A stretch of DNA of 41,339 nt, from positions 1 through 41,339 of IMG/VR virus record IMGVR_UViG_3300045988_044838. The stretch is one strand, 5' to 3'. Below, in pieces: positions 17,956 through 41,339 of this stretch. This DNA is from a virus. Positions within the stretch are counted from its first letter, which is position 1; each line of letters begins with the position of its first letter. The translations under genes were made by a program, and so were the position numbers. The notes beneath the pieces were generated by a model. The model did no database searches. It was not told the origin of the DNA and worked only from the letters and a program-made list of their open reading frames with translations.

Positions 17956-18379
17956 AACAACACCTCCCCCGGTATAGAAGCCCTGTCCCGGCCAAATACC
18001 TCTGGGCAATAGAGGCAAGCATGGCCTCTGCTGCCCGGGCGGATTCAGCCGCTTGTTGGGCGCTCTCGCCGCCGCTGCGGTAGGACTTAGACCAACTGCC
18101 CACTGTCTGGCTTTGCAGTTCCCCGGAATCGCTGGATTCCAACGAAGCGGTCAGGGCCTTTTGCGCCAGTACCTGGGCGGTCTCGATGACCTGGTACTGT
18201 TCCGCAAGGGCGCAGCAGCACATTTTCAGCGCGTCTAACTCTGCGTTCTTTGCCGCCCGGCCCTGCGTGTAATAGTCCAAAAAGCTGCTTGCACGCAGGG
18301 CGAGGCGCGGAAAGTCGGCCTCCTGGATGGCCGTCCCCAGGTATGTATTTTTGTAATACTGATAATCTGCGTAAGCCAT
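17921..18379 (-). CDS. Head-tail connector protein
   Basis: ATG follows AAGGAGG. The start MAYADYQYYKNTYLG and the ...GLLYRG near the end are typical of gp6-like connectors. Confidence 0.6.
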   Translation of the reverse strand: MAYADYQYYKNTYLGTAIQEADFPRLALRASSFLDYYTQGRAAKNAELDALKMCCCALAEQYQVIETAQVLAQKALTASLESSDSGELQSQTVGSWSKSYRSGGESAQQAAESARAAEAMLASIAQRYLAGTGLLYRGRCCCGHVSTHCNGL

Positions 18380-20736: not shown

Positions 20737-22281
20737 TCATTTTCCCTCCAAATAGCCCCGATACTTCTTTCTCAGCTTTTCCGGAACTGCTGTCACAATC
20801 TTCCCGTCAACGCTTAAAACAACATACCCGTTGTCTGCCAAGAATTTTAATGTATTCCTGTCGGTCTGATATAAGACTAACCTGCTGTTATTTATGATAC
20901 TCTGCGACGCTTCGATAGTCAATGCAGCTCTATCCGGTTTCATCGTCAGATTCTTTGCAAAGTGGTCTGTTACACCGCTAATCTGCGGTGGGTCAAGCTG
21001 CACCTGATATTGTCGTTCAGAGAACTTTCTGACAATTTTTATATCCCCTTGATATGCTCGCAGTCCAGAGAATTGCTTTATGCCGGTTATCTCTTCCGGA
21101 TATTGGATCTGCATACGCTCCCGCTGCAACGGCAGCCCCGCCGCCTCGCTAAATGCTTTATATTCCTTGTTCAGCCGCCGGATACGGGCCGTTACAGCTT
21201 GGTAATCTTCTTCTAGCCCTGCGGCATTGTAAGCGGTCTGCTCCCGTTTCAGCTTACGGACAGTACGCTCTATTTGGCGTTGCTTTTGAGTGGCCGTATA
21301 TCCGTCGTACTGCCTGCCTTCAAAAGATATCTCCCGATTTTTCCCCTTCATCGCGTTCAGATCAGAGCTTGAATAGGTCGGCTCCATAACACTCTCAACA
21401 AACGGATAAAAGTGGTGGCGGCAATTCCATCCGCCCAGACCGGGTCCGGTACCATAGCCCGTAGAAGCGATAAAATCAGGATATCTCCCACTGGATTGCT
21501 TCGGTTTTTTGCTCCATCGGTAAATCTTCCCTTGCCAGCTCTCGTGGTTTTCCGGCCCGGTTCCGGTGTTCCGCGCCCCGATATGAGCAGAGACCTCAAC
21601 CAGATCAGTTTCCAAATAATCCATGCCTTGCTCCGAATACTGTTGGCAAAGCTGATTGATACCAGTCATAATAGCGCGGCGGACTGCAACGTCAATCTGG
21701 TCCATGTGACCGCTTTCATATTCCGCTGTCTTGATGCCGCTGTCTGCAAGCTGCTTCACGGCACCTCTAATTGCCTGATTGTAGCTGATTGCACCGCTCT
21801 GTATCTGCAACACGGCATTATCAAGTGCCCATTGGTAAGCACTTGCAGGCCGGAGCAAAGTCCTTCCATTGTCCAGCAGGAAAGCCATTGATTGCGTAAT
21901 ATTTCGGAATGTTTGGCGAGTCTGCTCATAAATGGCATAGGTATCTTCGATGCTCAACAGTGTTTTGGGCGCTGTTACATCCGAACGATCAATCAGATAT
22001 GTGTAATACTTCTGATTCCGCTCTACAACATCGTCAAATAGCTTATTCAGCTCTTTCTCGCCGATATTGGTTGTCCTTTTGATTGCTTGCTCGATCTCCT
22101 GTTGGCTGATACCGTGGGAGCGCAACGCCTGAATATCTAGGACAGTGACTTCGTTTAGCTCTCCAGACGCTTTGAGGCGAGAGCAGATTTCCTCTAGTAG
22201 CGTGTTTTCAAGATTGCGGTATAGCTCGGCCAGCTCTTCCGGGAGGGCATCGAGAAGTTCCGGGGTAAATGGATACCTCAT
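20737..22281 (-). CDS. Head morphogenesis / minor capsid protein (Mu F / SPP1 gp7-like)
   Basis: It has the GGWNCRHHF motif and follows the portal gene. It also has a roughly 150-aa C-terminal extension. Confidence 0.8.
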   Translation of the reverse strand: MRYPFTPELLDALPEELAELYRNLENTLLEEICSRLKASGELNEVTVLDIQALRSHGISQQEIEQAIKRTTNIGEKELNKLFDDVVERNQKYYTYLIDRSDVTAPKTLLSIEDTYAIYEQTRQTFRNITQSMAFLLDNGRTLLRPASAYQWALDNAVLQIQSGAISYNQAIRGAVKQLADSGIKTAEYESGHMDQIDVAVRRAIMTGINQLCQQYSEQGMDYLETDLVEVSAHIGARNTGTGPENHESWQGKIYRWSKKPKQSSGRYPDFIASTGYGTGPGLGGWNCRHHFYPFVESVMEPTYSSSDLNAMKGKNREISFEGRQYDGYTATQKQRQIERTVRKLKREQTAYNAAGLEEDYQAVTARIRRLNKEYKAFSEAAGLPLQRERMQIQYPEEITGIKQFSGLRAYQGDIKIVRKFSERQYQVQLDPPQISGVTDHFAKNLTMKPDRAALTIEASQSIINNSRLVLYQTDRNTLKFLADNGYVVLSVDGKIVTAVPEKLRKKYRGYLEGK

Positions 22282-23699
22282 TCAATTTCTTCTTCCTCCT
22301 CGTCCGTCATATCCTCCATTTTCGGCAGCATCTTCTTTGCTGTGGCTTCGTCCTCGTTATACCACTTCATGCGGTACTCCCAATCGTTCATAATACCCGC
22401 CGCTAAATCCTGCCTGTCATTATTTCGTTCTGTTGTCTTGTCCTCGATGATGCTATCATCGAAATCAATAGTGACCTCCGCATCCTCATTCAACCCGGCA
22501 CCCATGGCCGTGTTGCCCAAGTGAAGAATAATCCGGCACAGTTCTTTGATGGCGCTCTCCAGAATGATTTCATGCTTCTTGATGGTGCGGAACATGGTGG
22601 AGTTTTCACTGATGACCTGGGTGGCGGTAGTGATGTTCCCACCGTCAAAGCGGTAATAAGTCTCCCCGAAACCACACTTGCTGGACAGCAGATTAAGCTG
22701 TGTCTGCACCCCCTGGGTGTGTTCCGCTGTCCGAAGGTTCATGTCGATGGGCTGAATGATGGCCCCGCCCTCGATGTCTTCCGGAAGCACATAATAGGCC
22801 AGATCATCAGGGTCAAAAACCGGCTCCCCGTCCAAATACTGTTGTGCGGAAGGCTTGACCATCACCCGCTTTTTCCCCAGCACGAACTCATTGACGTAGC
22901 TGTCAAAAGCAATATCTACGCCCTTCATGCTGTCGATGGCGTTAGCGTAGACCGAAATCCCAAGTGGAATGGAGTAATCGAAGTTGTTGGCTATATTGGG
23001 CCGGTCAATAACGAATTGCCTCCGGTCGCTGCCGGTGTGAACAACAGGGGGCACCTTCTCAAAGCCCTGCACAGATGCCAGCGCCACTTCCGTATCCACG
23101 TTCTGATTTCGGTATGTATACAGCCTGTTTTCGATGTCGTACAGGCCGTTTACCTTCCGGTGGATTTGCAGATAGCAGTAATCGTCGCCATTTACGTTGA
23201 CGATGCTGTCAAAGGCACATTCAGTAATAACGCCATTCTGCCAGGACAGGGGCCAGATATGCTCCACCGTTACGTAGTCGATGACGATATCTGTGGCGCT
23301 GCCAGGAACCGGGCCCGCTTCCGTGACCCCCATGCCCACCACGCGGGGGATAAAAGCCACCGTTCCAAGAGCGAAGGCCATTTCCTGCATCTCGTTGGAG
23401 CGCACGCGAAAGTTGTTCTCCTTCAGGACCCGGTCAATAAACTCCTGCTCCTTTGTGCCATCCAGAGTGATTTCAACCCTCTCATTCATGAGAAGATTTG
23501 CCCAGTCCTCCGGGATTTTCTTTCCCATGTTGAGGGTGTACCGCTTGCAGCGCACCATCCCGGCCCCGTTTCGTACCCGGTAACGGTGGAACCCCTTCAC
23601 GTCGCCCTCATACCAAGACTTCCACTCCTGGACCTTGCCGTAAAAGCCCGCGCTGATGGTGGAAAAGCCCAGCTCTTTCAGTTTGTCGATGATGGTCAT
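22278..23699 (-). CDS. Portal protein
   Basis: 473 aa, immediately downstream of TerL, with an acidic C-terminus. Confidence 0.88.
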   Translation of the reverse strand: MTIIDKLKELGFSTISAGFYGKVQEWKSWYEGDVKGFHRYRVRNGAGMVRCKRYTLNMGKKIPEDWANLLMNERVEITLDGTKEQEFIDRVLKENNFRVRSNEMQEMAFALGTVAFIPRVVGMGVTEAGPVPGSATDIVIDYVTVEHIWPLSWQNGVITECAFDSIVNVNGDDYCYLQIHRKVNGLYDIENRLYTYRNQNVDTEVALASVQGFEKVPPVVHTGSDRRQFVIDRPNIANNFDYSIPLGISVYANAIDSMKGVDIAFDSYVNEFVLGKKRVMVKPSAQQYLDGEPVFDPDDLAYYVLPEDIEGGAIIQPIDMNLRTAEHTQGVQTQLNLLSSKCGFGETYYRFDGGNITTATQVISENSTMFRTIKKHEIILESAIKELCRIILHLGNTAMGAGLNEDAEVTIDFDDSIIEDKTTERNNDRQDLAAGIMNDWEYRMKWYNEDEATAKKMLPKMEDMTDEEEEEIE

Positions 23700-23703
23700 T
23701 CGT

Positions 23704-24882
23704 TCACCTCATTACCGGGAAATGCCGAACCAGAATAGTATTCGCAAAATATCGTATATCGTCCATGGCGTGGTCATCCGCCTTGATGACCTTGTCCACC
23801 GTTGAGTCCTCGTCCCAGCGGTATAGTCCAAATTCTCGGATAGCGTCCTTGCACCGGCGGTGTATTTTGAGTTTCCCGCTTTTGAGATAGACAGAGGTCC
23901 GCCGTATCCCGTCCATTACGTCATTGTTCGCTTTGACCACATGGAACTCATTGTGTCGGAATACTGTAGTGATAAAAGACGCCGCCGACGGGTCAATGAC
24001 CACATAGTCCACGTTATAACCGTCGGCCAGTTCCCGTATCGCCTGGTAATACTCCTCGTCGGTCAGTTGCTCCTGCGTCCCACGCCCGCTGTAATAATAC
24101 TCATTGATGCGGACAGCCCCTTGCGTTGTCACGCACCACAGGCCGGCAGAAAAGGGGTTGAGCGTTCCGTAATCCACAGAAATATAATACCGGCCCGCCG
24201 GCGGTTCCTCGTCCACGATGTTGCTCTCCCCAAACATGGGGTAGATCAGTCCCTCAGCCAGCGCCCACTGTCCCAAAATATAACGGTCATAAAAAACCGT
24301 GCCACGATACTCCCGTTTTAGGTTCTCCACAAAAGCCTCCGGGAGAAACGGATTATCGTCAATGGTATATGTCTGGCTAAAAATATCCGCTTTACTGTCC
24401 AGAAACACTTTCAACCAGTGATTCGGCCCCTGCGGATTATAAGTGCCGTCAAAGCACGAATACGCCTTATCCAGACGGCTTTTCAGCAGCTCAAAGACTT
24501 CCTGGCTCCAGTCCGCCACCTCGTCTCCATAGCAGTATTTGATTGATGCACCGCGGATTTTTGATACCTGCGTTACTTTTTCCGCTCCAAGACAGTAGCA
24601 CTTTTCCCCAAATATCCACGCCGTATTATCGCTGGAAATCGTGCCAACAAGATCGTCACCATAGATCGTTCGCATAGGCTCAAGTACATTCCGCTCAATG
24701 GTAGATTTAGTGACACCAAGAATAACCGTCAGACCGTCCTTGCCAACACGCTCCCGGATGCGGATTGGGATGATCCACCGGAAATCAAGGTAGGTTTTCC
24801 CGCTGCGGGTGGCCCCTCCCTTAAAATTCCAGCGGTGATGCCCCTCCCGGACAAATTCAGTTTGTTTCGGACTTAACAGCAT
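23704..24882 (-). CDS. terL: Terminase large subunit (PBSX/Terminase_3-like)
   Basis: It has a Walker A-like GGATRSGKT and a YGDEV Walker B-like segment, with a nuclease half. It lies upstream of the portal gene. Confidence 0.9.
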   Translation of the reverse strand: MLLSPKQTEFVREGHHRWNFKGGATRSGKTYLDFRWIIPIRIRERVGKDGLTVILGVTKSTIERNVLEPMRTIYGDDLVGTISSDNTAWIFGEKCYCLGAEKVTQVSKIRGASIKYCYGDEVADWSQEVFELLKSRLDKAYSCFDGTYNPQGPNHWLKVFLDSKADIFSQTYTIDDNPFLPEAFVENLKREYRGTVFYDRYILGQWALAEGLIYPMFGESNIVDEEPPAGRYYISVDYGTLNPFSAGLWCVTTQGAVRINEYYYSGRGTQEQLTDEEYYQAIRELADGYNVDYVVIDPSAASFITTVFRHNEFHVVKANNDVMDGIRRTSVYLKSGKLKIHRRCKDAIREFGLYRWDEDSTVDKVIKADDHAMDDIRYFANTILVRHFPVMR

Positions 24883-25276
24883 CCTTAAACTCCTTCAACA
24901 AACCATCCAACTTGTTCAAACTGTCGTTTCCGCTGGCTGTGTTCTTTGTGGCCTTGTCAACGATGATCCCGAAAGAAGTAGCAATTTGAGATAATCCCGC
25001 ATCCCTGATCTTTTCCGGGTCTGTCAGCGCCATCAGGTGGAGGTCGATGGCCTCCTGCATCTTTTCCTTGCGCGTCTCCATAAAGGCCAGCATATCAAGT
25101 GTATTCTGCTTCTTTTTTTGTTGCGCCTTTTGGGCGAATCCTTCGCACTTTAGCACTATCCGCTTCACAGTATCTTTGGAAACCCCATTGATTTTTGCTG
25201 TGGCGTTATAGCTTTCGGTCTCCAGATAATCAGCCACGATTTTCTTTTTCTGCTTATCCGTCAGCCGTGCAGCCAT
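24857..25276 (-). CDS. terS: Terminase small subunit (HTH N-terminus)
   Basis: 139 aa. The N-terminal HTH is ATAKINGVSKDTVKRIV. It overlaps the terL start. Confidence 0.7.
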   Translation of the reverse strand: MAARLTDKQKKKIVADYLETESYNATAKINGVSKDTVKRIVLKCEGFAQKAQQKKKQNTLDMLAFMETRKEKMQEAIDLHLMALTDPEKIRDAGLSQIATSFGIIVDKATKNTASGNDSLNKLDGLLKEFKDAVKSETN

Positions 25277-25348: not shown

Positions 25349-25981
25349 TCAAAGCTCCATATTGGGGTAAACTTTTTCCCACACTTTCATATGGTAAATA
25401 TTTACCTCACCGTAGTTAGCATCGAAAATCTTCCTCACGCCGTATCCCATCCGCTCACTTTCTCTTTTGAGTTTCCTCCAATCAAAGTCCTTATGAGACC
25501 GTCCATTCATGTGGGCAACTCTTTTGATGGAGTACCATTCTTTGCTCCGGTCCAGCTCTGCCTCCAGTGCCTTTCTTCTGTCCTGTTCTCCTTTGAGCAC
25601 AGTACACAGCCGGATCATAATATCCGGATTCATAATTGCCGCTTCAAGGGTTTCAGGAGTTATGTAGGCCCCATGCTTGCGGATAGACGGAAGCACCTCA
25701 TCAAAAATCCATTTTTCAAATCGTTCCGCCCCCGGCAGCTCTGACTTGGCTGCCAGACGGTAAATGTCACCCTCGGGGATGAACTTCATGGCCTGTTCAC
25801 CACCGTTGGTAGGGAGTCGGCGAATCACCGACCCCTTGCAATGAGTAGTGATTGCATCAGCGGGGCGTTTGTATCCCAGCGCCTTTGCCACATCACTCCC
25901 GCAGAACATCACCTTGCCGTCCTCTTCTATGGTCCGGATTTCTCCAAACTCCGGGTTGTTGAAAATCATAAGCTCATTCAT
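25349..25981 (-). CDS. Bro-N domain antirepressor-like protein
   Basis: FGEIRTIEEDGKVMFCGSDVAKALGY...GDIYRLAAKSELPGAERFEKWIFDEVLPSIRKHGAY is a classical Bro-N pattern. Confidence 0.85.
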   Translation of the reverse strand: MNELMIFNNPEFGEIRTIEEDGKVMFCGSDVAKALGYKRPADAITTHCKGSVIRRLPTNGGEQAMKFIPEGDIYRLAAKSELPGAERFEKWIFDEVLPSIRKHGAYITPETLEAAIMNPDIMIRLCTVLKGEQDRRKALEAELDRSKEWYSIKRVAHMNGRSHKDFDWRKLKRESERMGYGVRKIFDANYGEVNIYHMKVWEKVYPNMEL

Positions 25982-31001: not shown

Positions 31002-31466
31002 TCACCACACCAGCATCGCTCCGCAGGACTCGCAGAAGCGCGGTTTTGCCTGAGCATGATCCTGATTGAAGAACTTCCCACAGCATGGGCAATTTGCGCC
31101 ATGTTCTGAAAGAATCACGTTCTGCTGAAGTTCATTCTTCAGGATGCCGTCAATGGTATCAACCAGTGCAAGGCAATTTTCCTGTGTAGGCTCTTTTCGC
31201 GCCCGTGTCCTTGCCTGCTCTGACAACCGTAAAATTTTCTCCCGTTCATAGGCGGTGTTGTCGCGGAAGTTATCAGAACCGATTTCCTCCATCATCTGCT
31301 TTCCGATTTGTCTTTTCTCGACGGACGCCTGCTCCGGCGTGATTGCTTTTGCGTTGAACCTGCGGTATAATAAAACCATCGCTTGAAATGCCCGCTGTTC
31401 TGACAGACATAACCCGTCCGGCATAGGGCCCTCTCTGGAGGCGATTTCCTCCCATCTGAATGTCAT
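31002..31466 (-). CDS. Hypothetical protein with C-terminal zinc ribbon
   Basis: AAAGGAGAAGAAA lies upstream of the ATG. It contains CPCCG...CESCG. Confidence 0.65.
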   Translation of the reverse strand: MTFRWEEIASREGPMPDGLCLSEQRAFQAMVLLYRRFNAKAITPEQASVEKRQIGKQMMEEIGSDNFRDNTAYEREKILRLSEQARTRARKEPTQENCLALVDTIDGILKNELQQNVILSEHGANCPCCGKFFNQDHAQAKPRFCESCGAMLVW

Positions 31467-31481
31467 TTTCTTCTCCTTTCA

Positions 31482-31687
31482 GGTTCCCCGGTATTCCCCG
31501 GCGGTTCCCCGGTCGGTTCCCCGGTGCAAGCCTTAGAGCCGCAACGGGTTCCCCGGGTTCCCCGGTCAAACGGAGATTTCCTATATAGAGCGAATATTTT
31601 GAACGCTTTAACTAATTAAAGTTCTCAAAATTATTTTATATATAAGGGGTGTCCGAAATAGCGGGGAACACCGGGGAACCGGGGAAC
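31482..31687. repeat. Iteron array flanking an AT-rich spacer: candidate replication origin
   Basis: GGTTCCCCGG (one variant, TATTCCCCGG) starts at 31482, 31492, 31503, 31515, 31547 and 31556. Inverted copies (CC)GGGGAAC lie at 31663-31669, 31671-31680 and 31679-31687. They flank a roughly 95-bp AT-rich segment at 31566-31660. Confidence 0.7.
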
Positions 31688-31688
31688 T

Positions 31689-33503
31689 TTAATCAATCAA
31701 TTCTGTCGAATATGCACAAATATCAGTGCTGTCTTTTATGCAAACACACCTGGGATGCATTTTGCCAATCAGCTTCTTTTTGGTGTTGTAGTCCCGGTCT
31801 GTGTCGAGTATTCCGCGCCGCTTTGCCCATGACAGGAACGACGCCGGGTTAAATCCTTCCCTCATCATCTCCCGGTCAAAGACCGATTTAATGATACAGA
31901 TATAGCCATCACGGAGTACCCCCCAGGTCTCCGTTTTTTCATCTTCCGGGTCAAACTTTGATTGGTTGGAAGCTACAAAATCCATGATCCAGTCTATCGC
32001 CCGTTCGTTCTGGTCAACGTCTGATTTGTCCGTCAGATATGGACACATCTCATTGACTTTGAGAGCGTTGCCGTCTTGAAATATCCATTTCTCTGCCAGA
32101 TAATCGGCTGTCAGGATCATCGCTCCAGCCATTGCCTGTTTCTCGGTGCTGGAACCCCTCTGTAAATCGGCATAGAAGCCCTTATAAGCCATCCTGGCCT
32201 CATCCATGTAATCAGACAGGCACTCCACGAAAATCCGTCCAGCGAAGCCGTAGTTGCGTCTGACGGTATCTGCGACAGTCTGCGGGTCCTGAAAGAGCTT
32301 TTCGTCTTTACAGTCGACCTCGACGATCCGGTTCACAGCGCCGCCGCCGGAAGCTCCGGTTGTGATGGGCTGCTCTCCGGTTGTGATAATGCAGTTTTTC
32401 CAGGTCTGTATTCTCTGTAAGCCGCCCGCCTTTGCGCCCCGCCCCTTGCCGATGCCCTCTGTCAGCATATAGATCAGGCGGTCGAAGTCTGCCCGCTCTT
32501 TGATGCATTGCAGCTCGTCCAGGCAAAGAGGAAGGGAGTTGCAGAAACCGGCCATCATTTCTTGGCCCACATAGGTACTGTTGAATGTGTGGATGTAGCT
32601 TCCCATGGACGGGTTTGCCCAAACGCTGGCGGCTGCCATCAGTCCAACCGTCTTGCCAGCCTCTGTACCGCCCCATATATGAGTAAAGAACGGAAGACCA
32701 CCCAGCGGTTCCACCAGAGCAGAGGCGAACGATGCTGCAAGCATAATCCTGGCAATGGTCCCATTTGCTCTGATCGTTCGCATCAGGCTCAGCCATTCAT
32801 CGTAGTCTCCCTGGGGGCATACGCTGTCAAACATGTGCTTGTAGGACAGGTCTCCATCATATTTGAGTTCTTCCACATAAGGAGAAAAACCGTAATCTCC
32901 GATCCAGCCCAGCCGTCCAACACTGTTTGTTTCCGGGATCTTGTCGTAGTTTTCGGACTCCAAAAACGTCAGGTATTTTACCAGCTCTTTTGCGCTCTCA
33001 CTGTCAACAGCGATACCGTATCTTGAGAGGTCCACGATCTTGCTTGCGCTTGATAGCGTGGACTTGTCAAATACTTTCACTTGCCAGCGCAAGCCGCGTT
33101 TATAGGCGATCTCCAGCTTGACTTCACCCGTGTCGATGTTGATGAGACGGCCCACCGGCATGATCGGATGTCGGCAAACAATGATCTCTCTGCCAGCAAA
33201 ATCCAGGCAGGTCACTCCAGCGTCATCACAGGTGTATTCCCCGCAGTAAAGTTCCATCGGCTGGCCGTCAAAATCAGTGACATTTTCGATGTCCCGGCCT
33301 TCAGCTTTGCGCTTCTCCGAAAGAAACGCATTCCACTTTGTGATGAAGTTCTTGACGCCGATGGCTCCAGCCTTTTCCTTGATGGCATCCCGGAGCTGAA
33401 GCATCACAAATTTGTTATCTCTAAAAGCGTACAGCCATTCAAACGGTTCGGGTGTCTGATATGTCTCCCGTGTCCAGTCCGGGATTTCGGGGAGATTGTT
33501 CAA
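31689..33503 (-). CDS. Replicative P-loop helicase/primase-associated protein (DUF927-like)
   Basis: It has Walker A GGTEAGKT and Walker B LCLDE. The track ORF extends to 33581. The TTG at 33503 after GAAAGAGGTGGG is the best-supported start. Confidence 0.8.
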   Translation of the reverse strand: MNNLPEIPDWTRETYQTPEPFEWLYAFRDNKFVMLQLRDAIKEKAGAIGVKNFITKWNAFLSEKRKAEGRDIENVTDFDGQPMELYCGEYTCDDAGVTCLDFAGREIIVCRHPIMPVGRLINIDTGEVKLEIAYKRGLRWQVKVFDKSTLSSASKIVDLSRYGIAVDSESAKELVKYLTFLESENYDKIPETNSVGRLGWIGDYGFSPYVEELKYDGDLSYKHMFDSVCPQGDYDEWLSLMRTIRANGTIARIMLAASFASALVEPLGGLPFFTHIWGGTEAGKTVGLMAAASVWANPSMGSYIHTFNSTYVGQEMMAGFCNSLPLCLDELQCIKERADFDRLIYMLTEGIGKGRGAKAGGLQRIQTWKNCIITTGEQPITTGASGGGAVNRIVEVDCKDEKLFQDPQTVADTVRRNYGFAGRIFVECLSDYMDEARMAYKGFYADLQRGSSTEKQAMAGAMILTADYLAEKWIFQDGNALKVNEMCPYLTDKSDVDQNERAIDWIMDFVASNQSKFDPEDEKTETWGVLRDGYICIIKSVFDREMMREGFNPASFLSWAKRRGILDTDRDYNTKKKLIGKMHPRCVCIKDSTDICAYSTELID

Positions 33504-34038
33504 GTTCCCACCTCTTTCCTTCTGCCAACAGCAGGTCATATTTGATTGCATCCATGCTTTTGAGCGCCCATGCAAATGCACAGGTCAATTCATCCGGATC
33601 ACTTGGCTGAAGGTTTCGGATCAGCTCATCCGCCATATCATACCGGCGCTCCAGTTCATTGCATTTGGCGTTTATCTCTGCAAGCTGTCTGTCATGCTCT
33701 CTGACTGCCATGATCGCGCTCTGACGGGCCTTACGCTCTCTGTACGTGATGGGCCGTGAAATACCGATCCCCAAGTTAAAATCGCTGTTAAGGCGTCCCA
33801 TGGCCTCTCTGAAAGAGCAGTTAAACAACAGCATGGCGAAGTCAATGACGCTGCCATGCGCCCCGCAGCCGAAACAATGGAAGCCACCAGAACCCGGATA
33901 GATATGTAGACTTGCCTGTCGGTCTCCCGCATGGAACGGGCAGCGAATGCAGTTTGCACGATCGACCTGAAATCCGTAATGCTCGACTACTTCCCGCATG
34001 GTGAGCCGCTGCCTGATTTCTTCAGCATTCCGGTTCAT
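33439..34038 (-). CDS. CHC2 zinc-finger protein (DnaG-type primase finger)
   Basis: It contains CPFHAGDRQASLHIYPGSGGFHCFGCGAHG. The ATG at 34038 overlaps the upstream stop. Confidence 0.8.
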   Translation of the reverse strand: MNRNAEEIRQRLTMREVVEHYGFQVDRANCIRCPFHAGDRQASLHIYPGSGGFHCFGCGAHGSVIDFAMLLFNCSFREAMGRLNSDFNLGIGISRPITYRERKARQSAIMAVREHDRQLAEINAKCNELERRYDMADELIRNLQPSDPDELTCAFAWALKSMDAIKYDLLLAEGKRWELEQSPRNPGLDTGDISDTRTV

Positions 34039-34537
34039 CTGGCAGGCCCTCCAACCGCTCTTTAAGCTCCCGGTACAAGACATCGTGGATCAGCTGGCCG
34101 CTCGTTTCTTCTTTGCAGAATAGGATCTGGCAGTTGTAGCGAGACAACCAGGCCGTCATGCTTGCCACCAGGGACTCCGGCTTCATCTGACTGCGATAGA
34201 CCCCAGCATAGGCTTTTTCCCAATCTCCGTTTTCAATCAAGAGATAGACCTTCGCGTTGGCCTGTTTGGCCCGCTCAAACTCCCGCTCGAACCGTTTGCG
34301 GTCCTGGCAATAGCAGTGAGCAATTTCATCCAGGTCCATCTTCCGCTCGATCACAACGGTATCCCGCAGGTCCAGACGTTCACACCTTGCAGAGTAATCG
34401 CCAAACGGCAGCGTCACCCGTTCCACGGGGAGACCGATGGAGGTCAGGCGCTTCCTGGCCCTCACCGTGTCCTGTTCCCGTGTGTCTACCAGACAGACCA
34501 TGCTGGAAAGCTGGCGTTTCACTTCTACTGGGTGCAT
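34022..34537 (-). CDS. ERCC4-type nuclease
   Basis: It has VDTREQ ... FGDY ... ERKMDLDE motifs. Confidence 0.7.
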   Translation of the reverse strand: MHPVEVKRQLSSMVCLVDTREQDTVRARKRLTSIGLPVERVTLPFGDYSARCERLDLRDTVVIERKMDLDEIAHCYCQDRKRFEREFERAKQANAKVYLLIENGDWEKAYAGVYRSQMKPESLVASMTAWLSRYNCQILFCKEETSGQLIHDVLYRELKERLEGLPDEPEC

Positions 34538-34546
34538 GGAACCGCC

Positions 34547-35128
34547 TTACTTCCAAGGAAATTCCATGTGGTCAGGGATCGTTCCCTCTTCAGACCATTC
34601 AGGAATTGCCGGGGTGCTGTTCTGTTTGTTCTTCAGAGGCTTGTCCTTCGGCATTTTGAATTTGCCGTCCTTGATGTCTCCGACACAGGCAAGGGCACAT
34701 GCTCTGGTAGACCAGCCAGTGTTTCCGTTGTACTCCCATTCCTCGTTGCGGAACAGAATGCCGACAGTCTTGCCTTTCAGAGTGGCCTCGTCCCAATTCC
34801 AGTGATAGCCAGGGTTTCCATCCTCAATGCAGTAGATGGCATTATTGAAGGTCCGCTTCGTCCAACCATCCTTTTCGCTGCCATCGTCCTTGGGGACATT
34901 CAGACGGTAGGCCCCCCGCCAGCGGCGGTCTTCACCAGTTTGGCTGTCAAAATCCTTTTTGAAAAAACCGGCGTAGGGGCCTTCCAGAATATCAAAGGAG
35001 ATCAAAAGTACATGGCCCCAGTCATAGTAGATTTCCTCCGCGTTGAGGATCTTCGCCACATAGCCACCAACCGGGAGCTGTTCTCTGGCCACGCTTTTCT
35101 CTGCCTTAAATCCGCTGAATTGTTTCAT
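34547..35128 (-). CDS. DUF669-like protein (SSB-like partner of Sak4-type ATPases)
   Basis: The ATG at 35128 follows CGGAGGATG. It has an LPVGGYVAKI... pattern. Its position is adjacent to the AAA_24-like ATPase. Confidence 0.6.
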   Translation of the reverse strand: MKQFSGFKAEKSVAREQLPVGGYVAKILNAEEIYYDWGHVLLISFDILEGPYAGFFKKDFDSQTGEDRRWRGAYRLNVPKDDGSEKDGWTKRTFNNAIYCIEDGNPGYHWNWDEATLKGKTVGILFRNEEWEYNGNTGWSTRACALACVGDIKDGKFKMPKDKPLKNKQNSTPAIPEWSEEGTIPDHMEFPWK

Positions 35129-35357
35129 TTTCATCCTCCGTTTCAATCGTTAATGGGCAATTCTGCCCGACATAGTGATCTGGATAGGCGCTGATCTCTC
35201 CAGTCAGAGCACAGGTCCGGCTCTGCTGGCGGAAAAACCGGCACTGGCGGCACGAACAATCGGCCACGCCTTTCCGGTCGACCGGGAAATATACGCTGAC
35301 GGTTGCCGTGCCTTTGATGTAGCTGGACACGCCAGACTCAAAACGGTTATATCTCAT
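35106..35357 (-). CDS. Cys-rich hypothetical protein
   Basis: The ATG at 35357 overlaps the end of the upstream gene. Confidence 0.5.
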   Translation of the reverse strand: MRYNRFESGVSSYIKGTATVSVYFPVDRKGVADCSCRQCRFFRQQSRTCALTGEISAYPDHYVGQNCPLTIETEDENETIQRI

Positions 35358-35952
35358 AGTATTCTCTGATGGCCTTGTCAACTGCGGCAAGGTCATTCTC
35401 GATCAACGGCTCGCTGAACATCCCCATAGGTGTTTTCACTGTGTCCTGTCCGCTGTTCCTGGTGGAGAACTGATATTTTCCATCAGTGACTACAGTTTTC
35501 AGGACAATGGTAAACATCCCTTCTAAAGTGATTTTCTCGTCCAGCAGCTTCCCGATGGTTTTGAACTTCTCGTTTCCGTTGCTGTCAATGTCGCTGTGCC
35601 CCATGAAATACACGATCTTATCATCAGGCAGAGCGGCAGCAGTCTTTACCAGGGTGTAGTAGTTCAGCGCGAGCTCTGTGAACTTCTGGTAGCCGGTCAC
35701 TTTGGCCGTTCTCATGTACTCACCTGTCATTAGGTAGGTCGCGTCGTCAATAACGATGGACTTTGCCGGGGCTTTCTGAATAGCCGCCTCAATGGATATA
35801 TAGTCATCTGTGTTGAAGGTCTTGTGCTTGTTCTTGAACGGCAGTGGCTTGCCGGAAACATTCACGATACACACATCTTCCGGCTTGAAATTCCGCAAGC
35901 TGGTGCTTTTTCCGGTGCCGGACTGCCCGTACACCATAACGATGATTGCCAT
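35347..35952 (-). CDS. Sak4-like / AAA_24 ATPase (recombination or annealing associated)
   Basis: It has Walker A GQSGTGKS near the N-terminus and a Walker B-like IVIDD. Confidence 0.7.
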   Translation of the reverse strand: MAIIVMVYGQSGTGKSTSLRNFKPEDVCIVNVSGKPLPFKNKHKTFNTDDYISIEAAIQKAPAKSIVIDDATYLMTGEYMRTAKVTGYQKFTELALNYYTLVKTAAALPDDKIVYFMGHSDIDSNGNEKFKTIGKLLDEKITLEGMFTIVLKTVVTDGKYQFSTRNSGQDTVKTPMGMFSEPLIENDLAAVDKAIREYYEI

Positions 35953-41220: not shown

Positions 41221-41339
41221 AATTGGAGAATTGAAAAAAGACATCCTTTTTTGATAAGGAGACCGCAAAATGTTAGATGAAAAAGACTTACAGGCTATTG
41301 CCCAGTTAATGGACTCTAAAATGGCCCAGCAAAAAAAAG
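41221..41339. repeat. Terminal direct repeat, copy 2 (identical to 1..119)
   Basis: Exact duplicate of the window start. Confidence 0.95.

Follow-up and report, generated by a model that had tools for sequence, protein, structure and literature searches.

The DNA analyzed here is the whole of IMG/VR record IMGVR_UViG_3300045988_044838 (positions 1 to 41,339; hereafter the window), which represents a complete virus of 41,339 bp, a temperate tailed phage. Its bases 1-119 are identical to bases 41221-41339. Because of this 119-bp terminal overlap, the record is a circular or terminally redundant assembly with about 41,220 unique bases. As listed in Table 1, the window carries genes for an integrase, for head, portal and terminase proteins and for an Ant-like product. 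The minus strand bears early genes encoding a Sak4-like annealing protein, an SSB-like protein and an ERCC4 nuclease, as well as the genes of a CHC2 (DnaG-type) zinc-ribbon protein, a DUF927-type helicase and a protein of 154 amino acids. The last two genes are separated by a gap of exactly 222 bp (31467-31688), which is bounded on one side by the helicase stop codon (31689-31691) and on the other by the next gene, whose ATG is at 31466. This gap is filled by short repeats that are arranged around an AT-rich tract.

Table 1. Position of the genes and sequence features of the window that are discussed in the text.
Feature	Position	Strand	Remarks
Integrase	634-1710
Minor head protein	20737-22281
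Portal	22278-23699
Terminase large subunit	23704-24882
Ant-like gene	25349-25981
Next early gene, 154 aa	31002-31466	-	Zinc-ribbon-like C-terminal end; start codon after the last iteron
Distal outer iteron quartet	31482-31524	-	GGTTCCCCGG at 31482, 31503 and 31515, degenerate TATTCCCCGG at 31492; spacing 10, 11, 12
22-bp spacer, distal pair to distal quartet	31525-31546	-	Coding strand ..AACCCGTTGCGGCTCTAAGGCTTGCA..
Distal inner iteron pair	31547-31565	-	GGTTCCCCGG twice on +; spacing 9; opposite in orientation to the proximal block
AT-rich core	31566-31660		72% A+T; from A+T content and rank
Proximal iteron block, three tandem copies	31662-31687	-	CGGGGAAC on +, GTTCCCCG on the coding strand; spacing 10, 8
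Helicase	31689-33581	-	DUF927 MCM-like ATPase, SaPIbov1 Rep / SCCmec Cch family (sequence and model)
HTH_56 C-terminal winged helix	31734-32015	-	Residues 523-616; proposed iteron reader (Pfam and model)
CHC2 (DnaG-type) zinc-ribbon protein, 214 aa	33439-34083	-	Zinc ribbon at residues 19-106
ERCC4 nuclease	34022-34537	-	Early gene
SSB-like protein	34547-35146	-	Early gene
Sak4-like annealing protein	35347-35952	-	Early gene

In Pfam, the helicase matched DUF927 (E = 3.4e-35, residues 134-390) and, at its C-terminal end, HTH_56 (E = 2.8e-18), the "Cch helix-turn-helix domain". PHROGs assigned it to phrog_8841, DNA primase/helicase. Its sequence matched two PDB entries and no others, namely 8tch (E = 5.5e-22), the Rep protein of the staphylococcal pathogenicity island (SaPI) SaPIbov1, which is entitled "initiation of replication protein with helicase activity", and 5dgk (E = 5.6e-14), the Cch protein of SCCmec. 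An AlphaFold2 model of the helicase was built from 72 homologues (mean pLDDT 91). When it was compared with known structures by Foldseek, 8tch ranked first (E = 2e-26, TM 0.59/0.71) and 5dgk second (E = 2e-23), and the next structure followed at about 1e-6 to 3.5e-6. On the basis of these sequence and fold matches, the helicase is assigned, with SaPIbov1 Rep and Cch, to one family of MCM-like helicases that load themselves.

The listed start of the helicase ORF, GTG 33581, overlaps the CHC2 gene by 143 nt (33439-33581). The TTG at 33503, which is preceded by AAGAGGTGGG, is more likely to be the start codon. In the related locus L010, an in-frame stop is found upstream of the position equivalent to TTG 33503. 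Many related helicases (L001-L004, L015 and L016) possess acidic C-terminal tails (...EELPF, ...DDLPF or ...VPFS) that resemble the C-terminal tip of bacterial SSB (DDDIPF), which suggests that they mimic the SSB interaction tail. The helicase of the window ends with ...AYSTELID and has no SSB-like tail. As for the CHC2 protein, a Toprim domain could be detected neither in its C-terminal half nor in the N-terminus of the helicase. In phages THSA-485A and FP_Epona a CHC2 zinc ribbon is fused to the helicase. The CHC2 protein is probably the priming partner of the helicase.

The repeats of the gap fall into two groups of opposite orientation. On the plus strand, GGTTCCCCGG occurs without mismatch at 31482, 31503, 31515, 31547 and 31556, and a degenerate copy, TATTCCCCGG, is found at 31492, so that the left copies follow each other at start-to-start distances of 10, 11, 12, 32 and 9. 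On the right, the inverted CGGGGAAC occurs three times on the same strand, at 31662, 31672 and 31680 (start-to-start 10 and 8). The original prediction, which proposed a phage origin in this gap, had listed six direct and three inverted copies. All nine were recovered within 1 nt of the coordinates that it gave, except that only five of the six direct copies are exact, the one at 31492 being degenerate. Expressed as CGGGGAA(C), the nine copies are thus split into six at 31483-31564 and three inverted ones at 31662-31687. There are nine CGGGGAA in the 222-bp gap versus four in the other 41.1 kb, and the 8-mer CGGGGAAC is present eight times within the gap versus once outside (at 18118). From the density outside the gap, at most 0.02 copies would be expected per 222 bp (Poisson P < 1e-15). 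When the complete genome was scanned, paired iterons were confined to 31504-31687. The sole exact copy outside the gap, GTTCCCCGG at 18118-18126, is solitary, lies within the structural gene region and is probably due to chance.

The tract of about 95 bp between the two groups (31566-31660), which the original prediction had described as AT-rich, has indeed an A+T content of 72% versus 49% for the genome and ranks among the top 0.3% of all 95-bp windows. It contains TTATATATA and is probably a DNA-unwinding element. An imperfect palindrome, ATTTTGAACGCTTTAA / TTAAAGTTCTCAAAAT, is found at its center (31596-31631; DNA fold z = -2.5), and central dyads of other sequence also occur in L004, L010 and L015. 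The 222-bp extent of the gap and its place between the DUF927-type helicase gene and the next gene were likewise described correctly. What had been missed is the orientation: as the genes are on the minus strand, the array directly follows the helicase stop on its 3' side, and this position is diagnostic for an origin of the kind discussed below. The first iteron core begins 3 nt past the stop codon, and the end of the distal quartet is 11 nt away from the ribosome-binding site of the next gene. GC skew and cumulative skew followed gene orientation throughout the phage and showed no inflection at 31.5 kb, a result that is uninformative either way.

Relatives of this locus were searched by tblastn, in IMG/VR and by profile-based scans. 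Near relatives were found neither by megablast of the region against GenBank phages nor by a single-protein scan of genome contigs. By tblastn against GenBank phages, helicases with 26-45% identity were found in Anaerostipes phages AC844P1-3, Roseburia phage Jekyll (where it is annotated as "MCM-like DNA helicase"), Ruminococcus gnavus phages phiRg507T2, Thermoanaerobacterium phage THSA-485A and Faecalibacterium phage FP_Epona, as well as in the Staphylococcus element PT1028. IMG/VR contigs showed 57-100% identity. In all 12 lineages compared, among them PT1028, the 430 bp past the helicase stop contain 6-10 copies of a lineage-specific 6-7-mer, of which only 0-4 copies are present in the remaining 3-5 kb of each locus. 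Examples of these iterons are GGGGAA, GGTCACA, GTAACC, GTAACA, GGTAACC and GGTGAAA, and GGGAAC in PT1028.

The window and its closest diverged relatives (L010, L012 and L013) share exactly the same layout. On the coding strand, the helicase stop is followed by three tandem copies, about 100 bp of AT-rich DNA, two inverted copies, a spacer of about 30 bp and four more copies. In L013 this layout is unchanged, with GGTCACA in place of GGGGAAC. The three cores of the proximal block are invariant across L005-L012 (3/3), and the spacer at 31525-31546 is similar to AACCCGCATAGCTCTAGGCTTT in phage THSA-485A. Conservation of the iterons in related phages had been put forward with the original prediction as a check. 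In alignments of the gap with L010 and L012, whose helicases are 76-78% identical to that of the window, the 63 iteron-core positions were 90-94% identical and the other 159 positions 59% and 41%, respectively (Fisher P = 2.5e-6 and 4e-14). The unit kept in the relatives is the 7-8-mer (C)GGGGAA(C) and not the 10-mer that had been taken for the repeat.

The profile-based scans gave about 1000 matches, 550 of them viral and 464 genomic, and the best 160 were taken as a larger sample. Most of these were gut viral contigs or prophages of Clostridia, Oscillospiraceae among them, and 155 loci were usable. In 137 of the 155, the most frequent 6-mer in the 300 bp past the helicase stop had more copies than any 6-mer reached in a control window from that locus (median 8 versus about 3). 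In an unbiased scan of each entire locus with sliding windows, the window richest in short repeats started at most 150 bp from the helicase stop in 139 of the 155 loci, for which about 7% would be expected by chance. The relatives use more than 35 different iteron cores, and their first iteron is usually located 1-8 nt past the stop. Three loci (L063, L064 and L150) have the array, for example CGACTA in 12-13 copies, displaced 0.3-1.1 kb downstream of the stop, presumably by a small gene inserted between helicase and origin, as in phiRg507T2_3. About 10 of the 155 relatives had no array in the stretch examined.

This linkage bears on a possible role of the array in partition (as a centromere-like site) or in packaging (as a pac site), with some other phage protein as its binder. 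Clustered short repeats are typical of parS-like and pac sites too. The array is nevertheless linked to the helicase in about 90% of the 155 loci, no ParA/ParB-type gene was present among the ORFs scanned in a phage that has an integrase, and the terminase genes are 6-7 kb off, at 23704-25276. Such a function is therefore extremely improbable.

The relatives are also instructive with regard to RNA structure. In an RNA of the minus strand covering 31460-31700, the proximal iterons pair with the outer distal ones (MFE -93.7 kcal/mol, z = -4.8 versus shuffles). The inverted repeats might accordingly serve as a hairpin of the early transcript, acting in processing, stability or translational control, or as a cruciform, and not as protein-binding iterons. 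Any inverted repeat set folds in this way, however, and a hairpin leaves unexplained the tandem spacing of 8-12 bp, the three versus six copies and the two inner copies that are unpaired. Moreover, the orientation patterns of the relatives vary (e.g. PPdPPPddPddd), so that one hairpin is not preserved, and a search of Rfam found no match, only a meaningless sub-threshold hit. We consider it very improbable that the array acts as a hairpin or cruciform and not through protein-binding iterons. Pairing of the inverted iterons in the early mRNA may conceivably have a role at the RNA level.

In a scan for sigma-70 promoters over 31300-31900, no promoter-like site was found on either strand. The same scan revealed one terminator-like site, on the non-coding strand and inside the next gene. 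Since the gap is without a promoter-like site, the next gene must be transcribed through the origin. The 154-aa product of that gene had no family match. The array could also be a transcriptional operator or roadblock for the downstream early genes instead of an origin, perhaps with the helicase itself or the 154-aa protein as regulator. It is situated within the early operon, its last iteron is close to the ribosome-binding site of the next gene (11 nt, see above), and a conserved TATAGGAAA box is present in the core. A role as operator or promoter is nonetheless unlikely to be its main function, and we regard the operator explanation as quite improbable: apart from the missing promoter, the array travels with the helicase gene and not with the downstream gene, which varies by lineage, and nine sites around an AT-rich core beside a Rep/Cch-family helicase are the layout of the experimentally defined SaPI origin.

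If the array is an origin, the protein that reads the iterons has to be named. The original prediction had seen no obvious initiator and had considered the N-terminal half of the helicase or the CHC2 protein as the binder. Neither point is supported, since by its sequence and fold the helicase would be an initiator that loads itself, like the other members of the SaPIbov1 Rep / Cch family, and since HTH_56 with its iteron-tracking columns favors the C-terminal domain. The co-variation was seen in two ways. At matched ATPase identity (0.5-0.8), HTH_56 was 7-12 points more identical in pairs of loci with the same iteron than in pairs with different iterons. Of the 30 columns most tied to iteron identity, 13 fall in HTH_56, which makes up 94 of the 600 columns (hypergeometric P = 2e-4). 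According to the model, these iteron-associated columns cluster at residues 592-611, the wing after the SWAKRRG helix. As both tests use related, non-independent pairs of sequences, and fast-evolving columns are freer to differ, they are supportive rather than conclusive. Because this domain is the known DNA-binding domain of the family and co-varies with the iteron, the C-terminal domain of the helicase is likely to be the initiator part, and it is predicted here as the iteron reader. The ten ORFs scanned in the early/replication region yielded no further initiator, whether of the Rep, DnaA, DnaD or O-like kind. Matches to the DnaA box were at chance level, and none was within 2.7 kb of the array.

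Two elements other than iterons also recur. The first box, CTATATAGGAAA (CTATA(TA)GGAAA type), is located on the minus strand at 31577-31588, in the core just before the inner distal iterons, and is kept in the window, L010 and L012. The second, AACCCG(C/T)(A/T)T...(A)GG(C/T)TT, lies between the distal iteron groups (31525-31551 in the window). Both recur at origins with differing iterons (L004:3255-3295 and the downstream regions of L015, L018 and L013). Loose patterns of the two boxes were about 8-fold enriched after helicase genes and covered 13 and 16 iteron classes, in only 11-16% of the loci, and the strict pattern AACCCGYWT...AGGYTT was present in only 3 of 182 loci. The idea that the spacer separating the two distal groups forms a conserved hairpin or terminator did not hold for the window (z = -0.8); the corresponding hairpin is also not significant in L010 and is significant in L013 (z = -3.6).

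It is possible, if rather doubtful, that the origin also holds conserved non-iteron elements at 31577-31588 and 31525-31551 and, as a separate matter, that a winged-helix/iteron recognition code can be read from these loci. If the boxes were truly shared across differing iterons, they would point to a second, conserved docking factor, for example the CHC2 protein or a host protein. The more than 35 natural iteron specificities, paired with the variation of the HTH_56 wing (592-611), could yield a recognition code of self-loading helicases.

The layout of SaPI origins has been published. The Rep protein of SaPIs is both initiator and helicase, and its C-terminal winged helix recognizes penta- or hexanucleotide iterons (PMC9371898). 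The origin consists of 6-12 iterons immediately downstream of the rep ORF, with an AT-rich region near the center and at least two iterons on each side in opposing directions (PMC9371898). No loader is required, and binding and melting are ATP-independent (PMC9371898). Cch, which contains DUF927, is related to SaPIbov1 Rep, and SaPI origins are found directly downstream of the helicase gene (PMC7581432). The original papers on SaPI origins are those of Ubeda et al. (2007 and 2012), to which PMC9371898 and PMC7581432 refer. A 2026 preprint describes an origin of about 300 bp with iterons oppositely disposed about the AT-rich region (bioRxiv 10.64898/2026.10.17.759575). It proposes one hexamer per side and shows that the C-terminal domains bend DNA in self-loading (10.64898/2026.10.17.759575).

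The array of the window has every one of these features of a SaPI origin at the sequence level, that is, the position, nine iterons, the AT-rich center and the opposed iterons. The matching initiator is represented by the adjacent ring helicase, which according to Pfam, PDB sequence and Foldseek matches has the Rep/Cch fold and a C-terminal winged helix. In view of this homology, of the agreement with SaPI origins as published and of the conservation in about 140 related loci, we consider it highly probable that the 222-bp gap is a SaPI-type phage origin, for which the helicase encoded upstream is both initiator and replicative helicase and its HTH_56 domain reads (C)GGGGAA(C). The proposal of a probable phage origin is thus supported.

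We infer that binding, melting, loading and replication take place at the 222-bp gap. Judging from the layout, the early operon would be transcribed through the gap, and the helicase, whose gene ends at the origin, would be made first. By its family and the co-variation, its winged helices may then bind the three proximal and six distal (2 + 4) iterons, which have opposite orientations. By analogy with SaPI Rep, one hexamer ring might assemble on each side while the core is bent and melted, although the numbers of iterons across the core are unequal (three versus six). The rings would self-load onto the single strands, again by analogy. Priming could follow through the CHC2 protein and/or the host primase DnaG, after which the host polymerase would replicate the phage genome.

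This type of replicon is already known from staphylococcal pathogenicity islands. The element of the window is well supported as one of this type, and it reveals no new mechanism. We found no published description of such origins in phages of gut Clostridia. The analysis places a probable origin, together with its predicted initiator, in a temperate phage of gut Clostridia that is uncultured, and it indicates that among true tailed phages in Clostridia the replicon of staphylococcal pathogenicity islands is a common module for replication. This can be of use for annotation, for shuttle or reporter replicons in gut anaerobes that are hard to engineer, and for inferring from the coverage of metagenomes how active replication is. 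The dozens of iteron specificities that change with the winged-helix domain represent a natural data set on how self-loading helicases recognize and open their origins. The conserved non-iteron boxes and the large natural set of iteron/winged-helix pairs are the points where the analysis could go further.

Several known systems can be compared with this origin. It is similar to the lambda ori and to iteron plasmids (RepA-type) in that iterons are found beside an AT-rich unwinding region and the origin is located within an early transcription unit. In lambda and in iteron plasmids a dedicated initiator recruits a separate helicase, and the lambda ori is inside the O gene. Unlike these, the helicase of the window itself carries the DNA-binding domain, and no separate initiator was found among the ten early-region ORFs scanned.

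The alpha protein of P4 combines helicase and origin recognition in one polypeptide, and its C-terminal DNA-binding domain reads short iterons. In phage P4, ori and crr are both required in cis as separate elements, and the alpha helicase, which is joined to a primase, comes from another family. Unlike the ori and crr of P4, there is a single iteron cluster in the genome of the window.

The helicase also resembles SCCmec Cch (PDB 5dgk), which shares DUF927 and HTH_56, the latter Pfam family being named after Cch. For Cch itself no origin is defined, and SCC elements are not phages. Cch2 is similar in that the helicase recognizes repeats just downstream of its own gene (PMC7581432). The origin mapped for Cch2, downstream of cch2, goes with a helicase of a different family and contains just three iterons of 5 nt (PMC7581432).

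The closest resemblance in organization is to the SaPI rep-ori replicon, especially that with a Rep of the SaPIbov1 / SaPI2 type (DUF927, MCM-like; PDB 8tch). The two have in common the family and fold of the helicase, with only 16-17% identity in the Foldseek structural alignment, the origin immediately 3' of the helicase gene, short opposed iterons around an AT-rich center, a presumed winged-helix reader and a primase-related gene just upstream. The iteron of PT1028 (L017, Staphylococcus), GTTCCC / GGGAAC, is similar to that of the window. The differences from SaPIs lie in the 7-8-mer iteron CGGGGAA(C), in the arrangement of the sites (3 / 2 + 4), in the hosts of the relatives, which are gut Clostridia, and in the upstream partner, which is a lone CHC2 zinc-ribbon protein and not SaPI Pri. 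A further difference is that the window is not a satellite island but the complete genome of a temperate tailed phage, which has its own genes for capsid, portal and terminase. A satellite would lack a full set of virion and packaging genes and depend on a helper, whereas integrase, terminase large subunit, portal and head genes are all present here. Its replicon is of the SaPI type, but the phage itself is not a SaPI.
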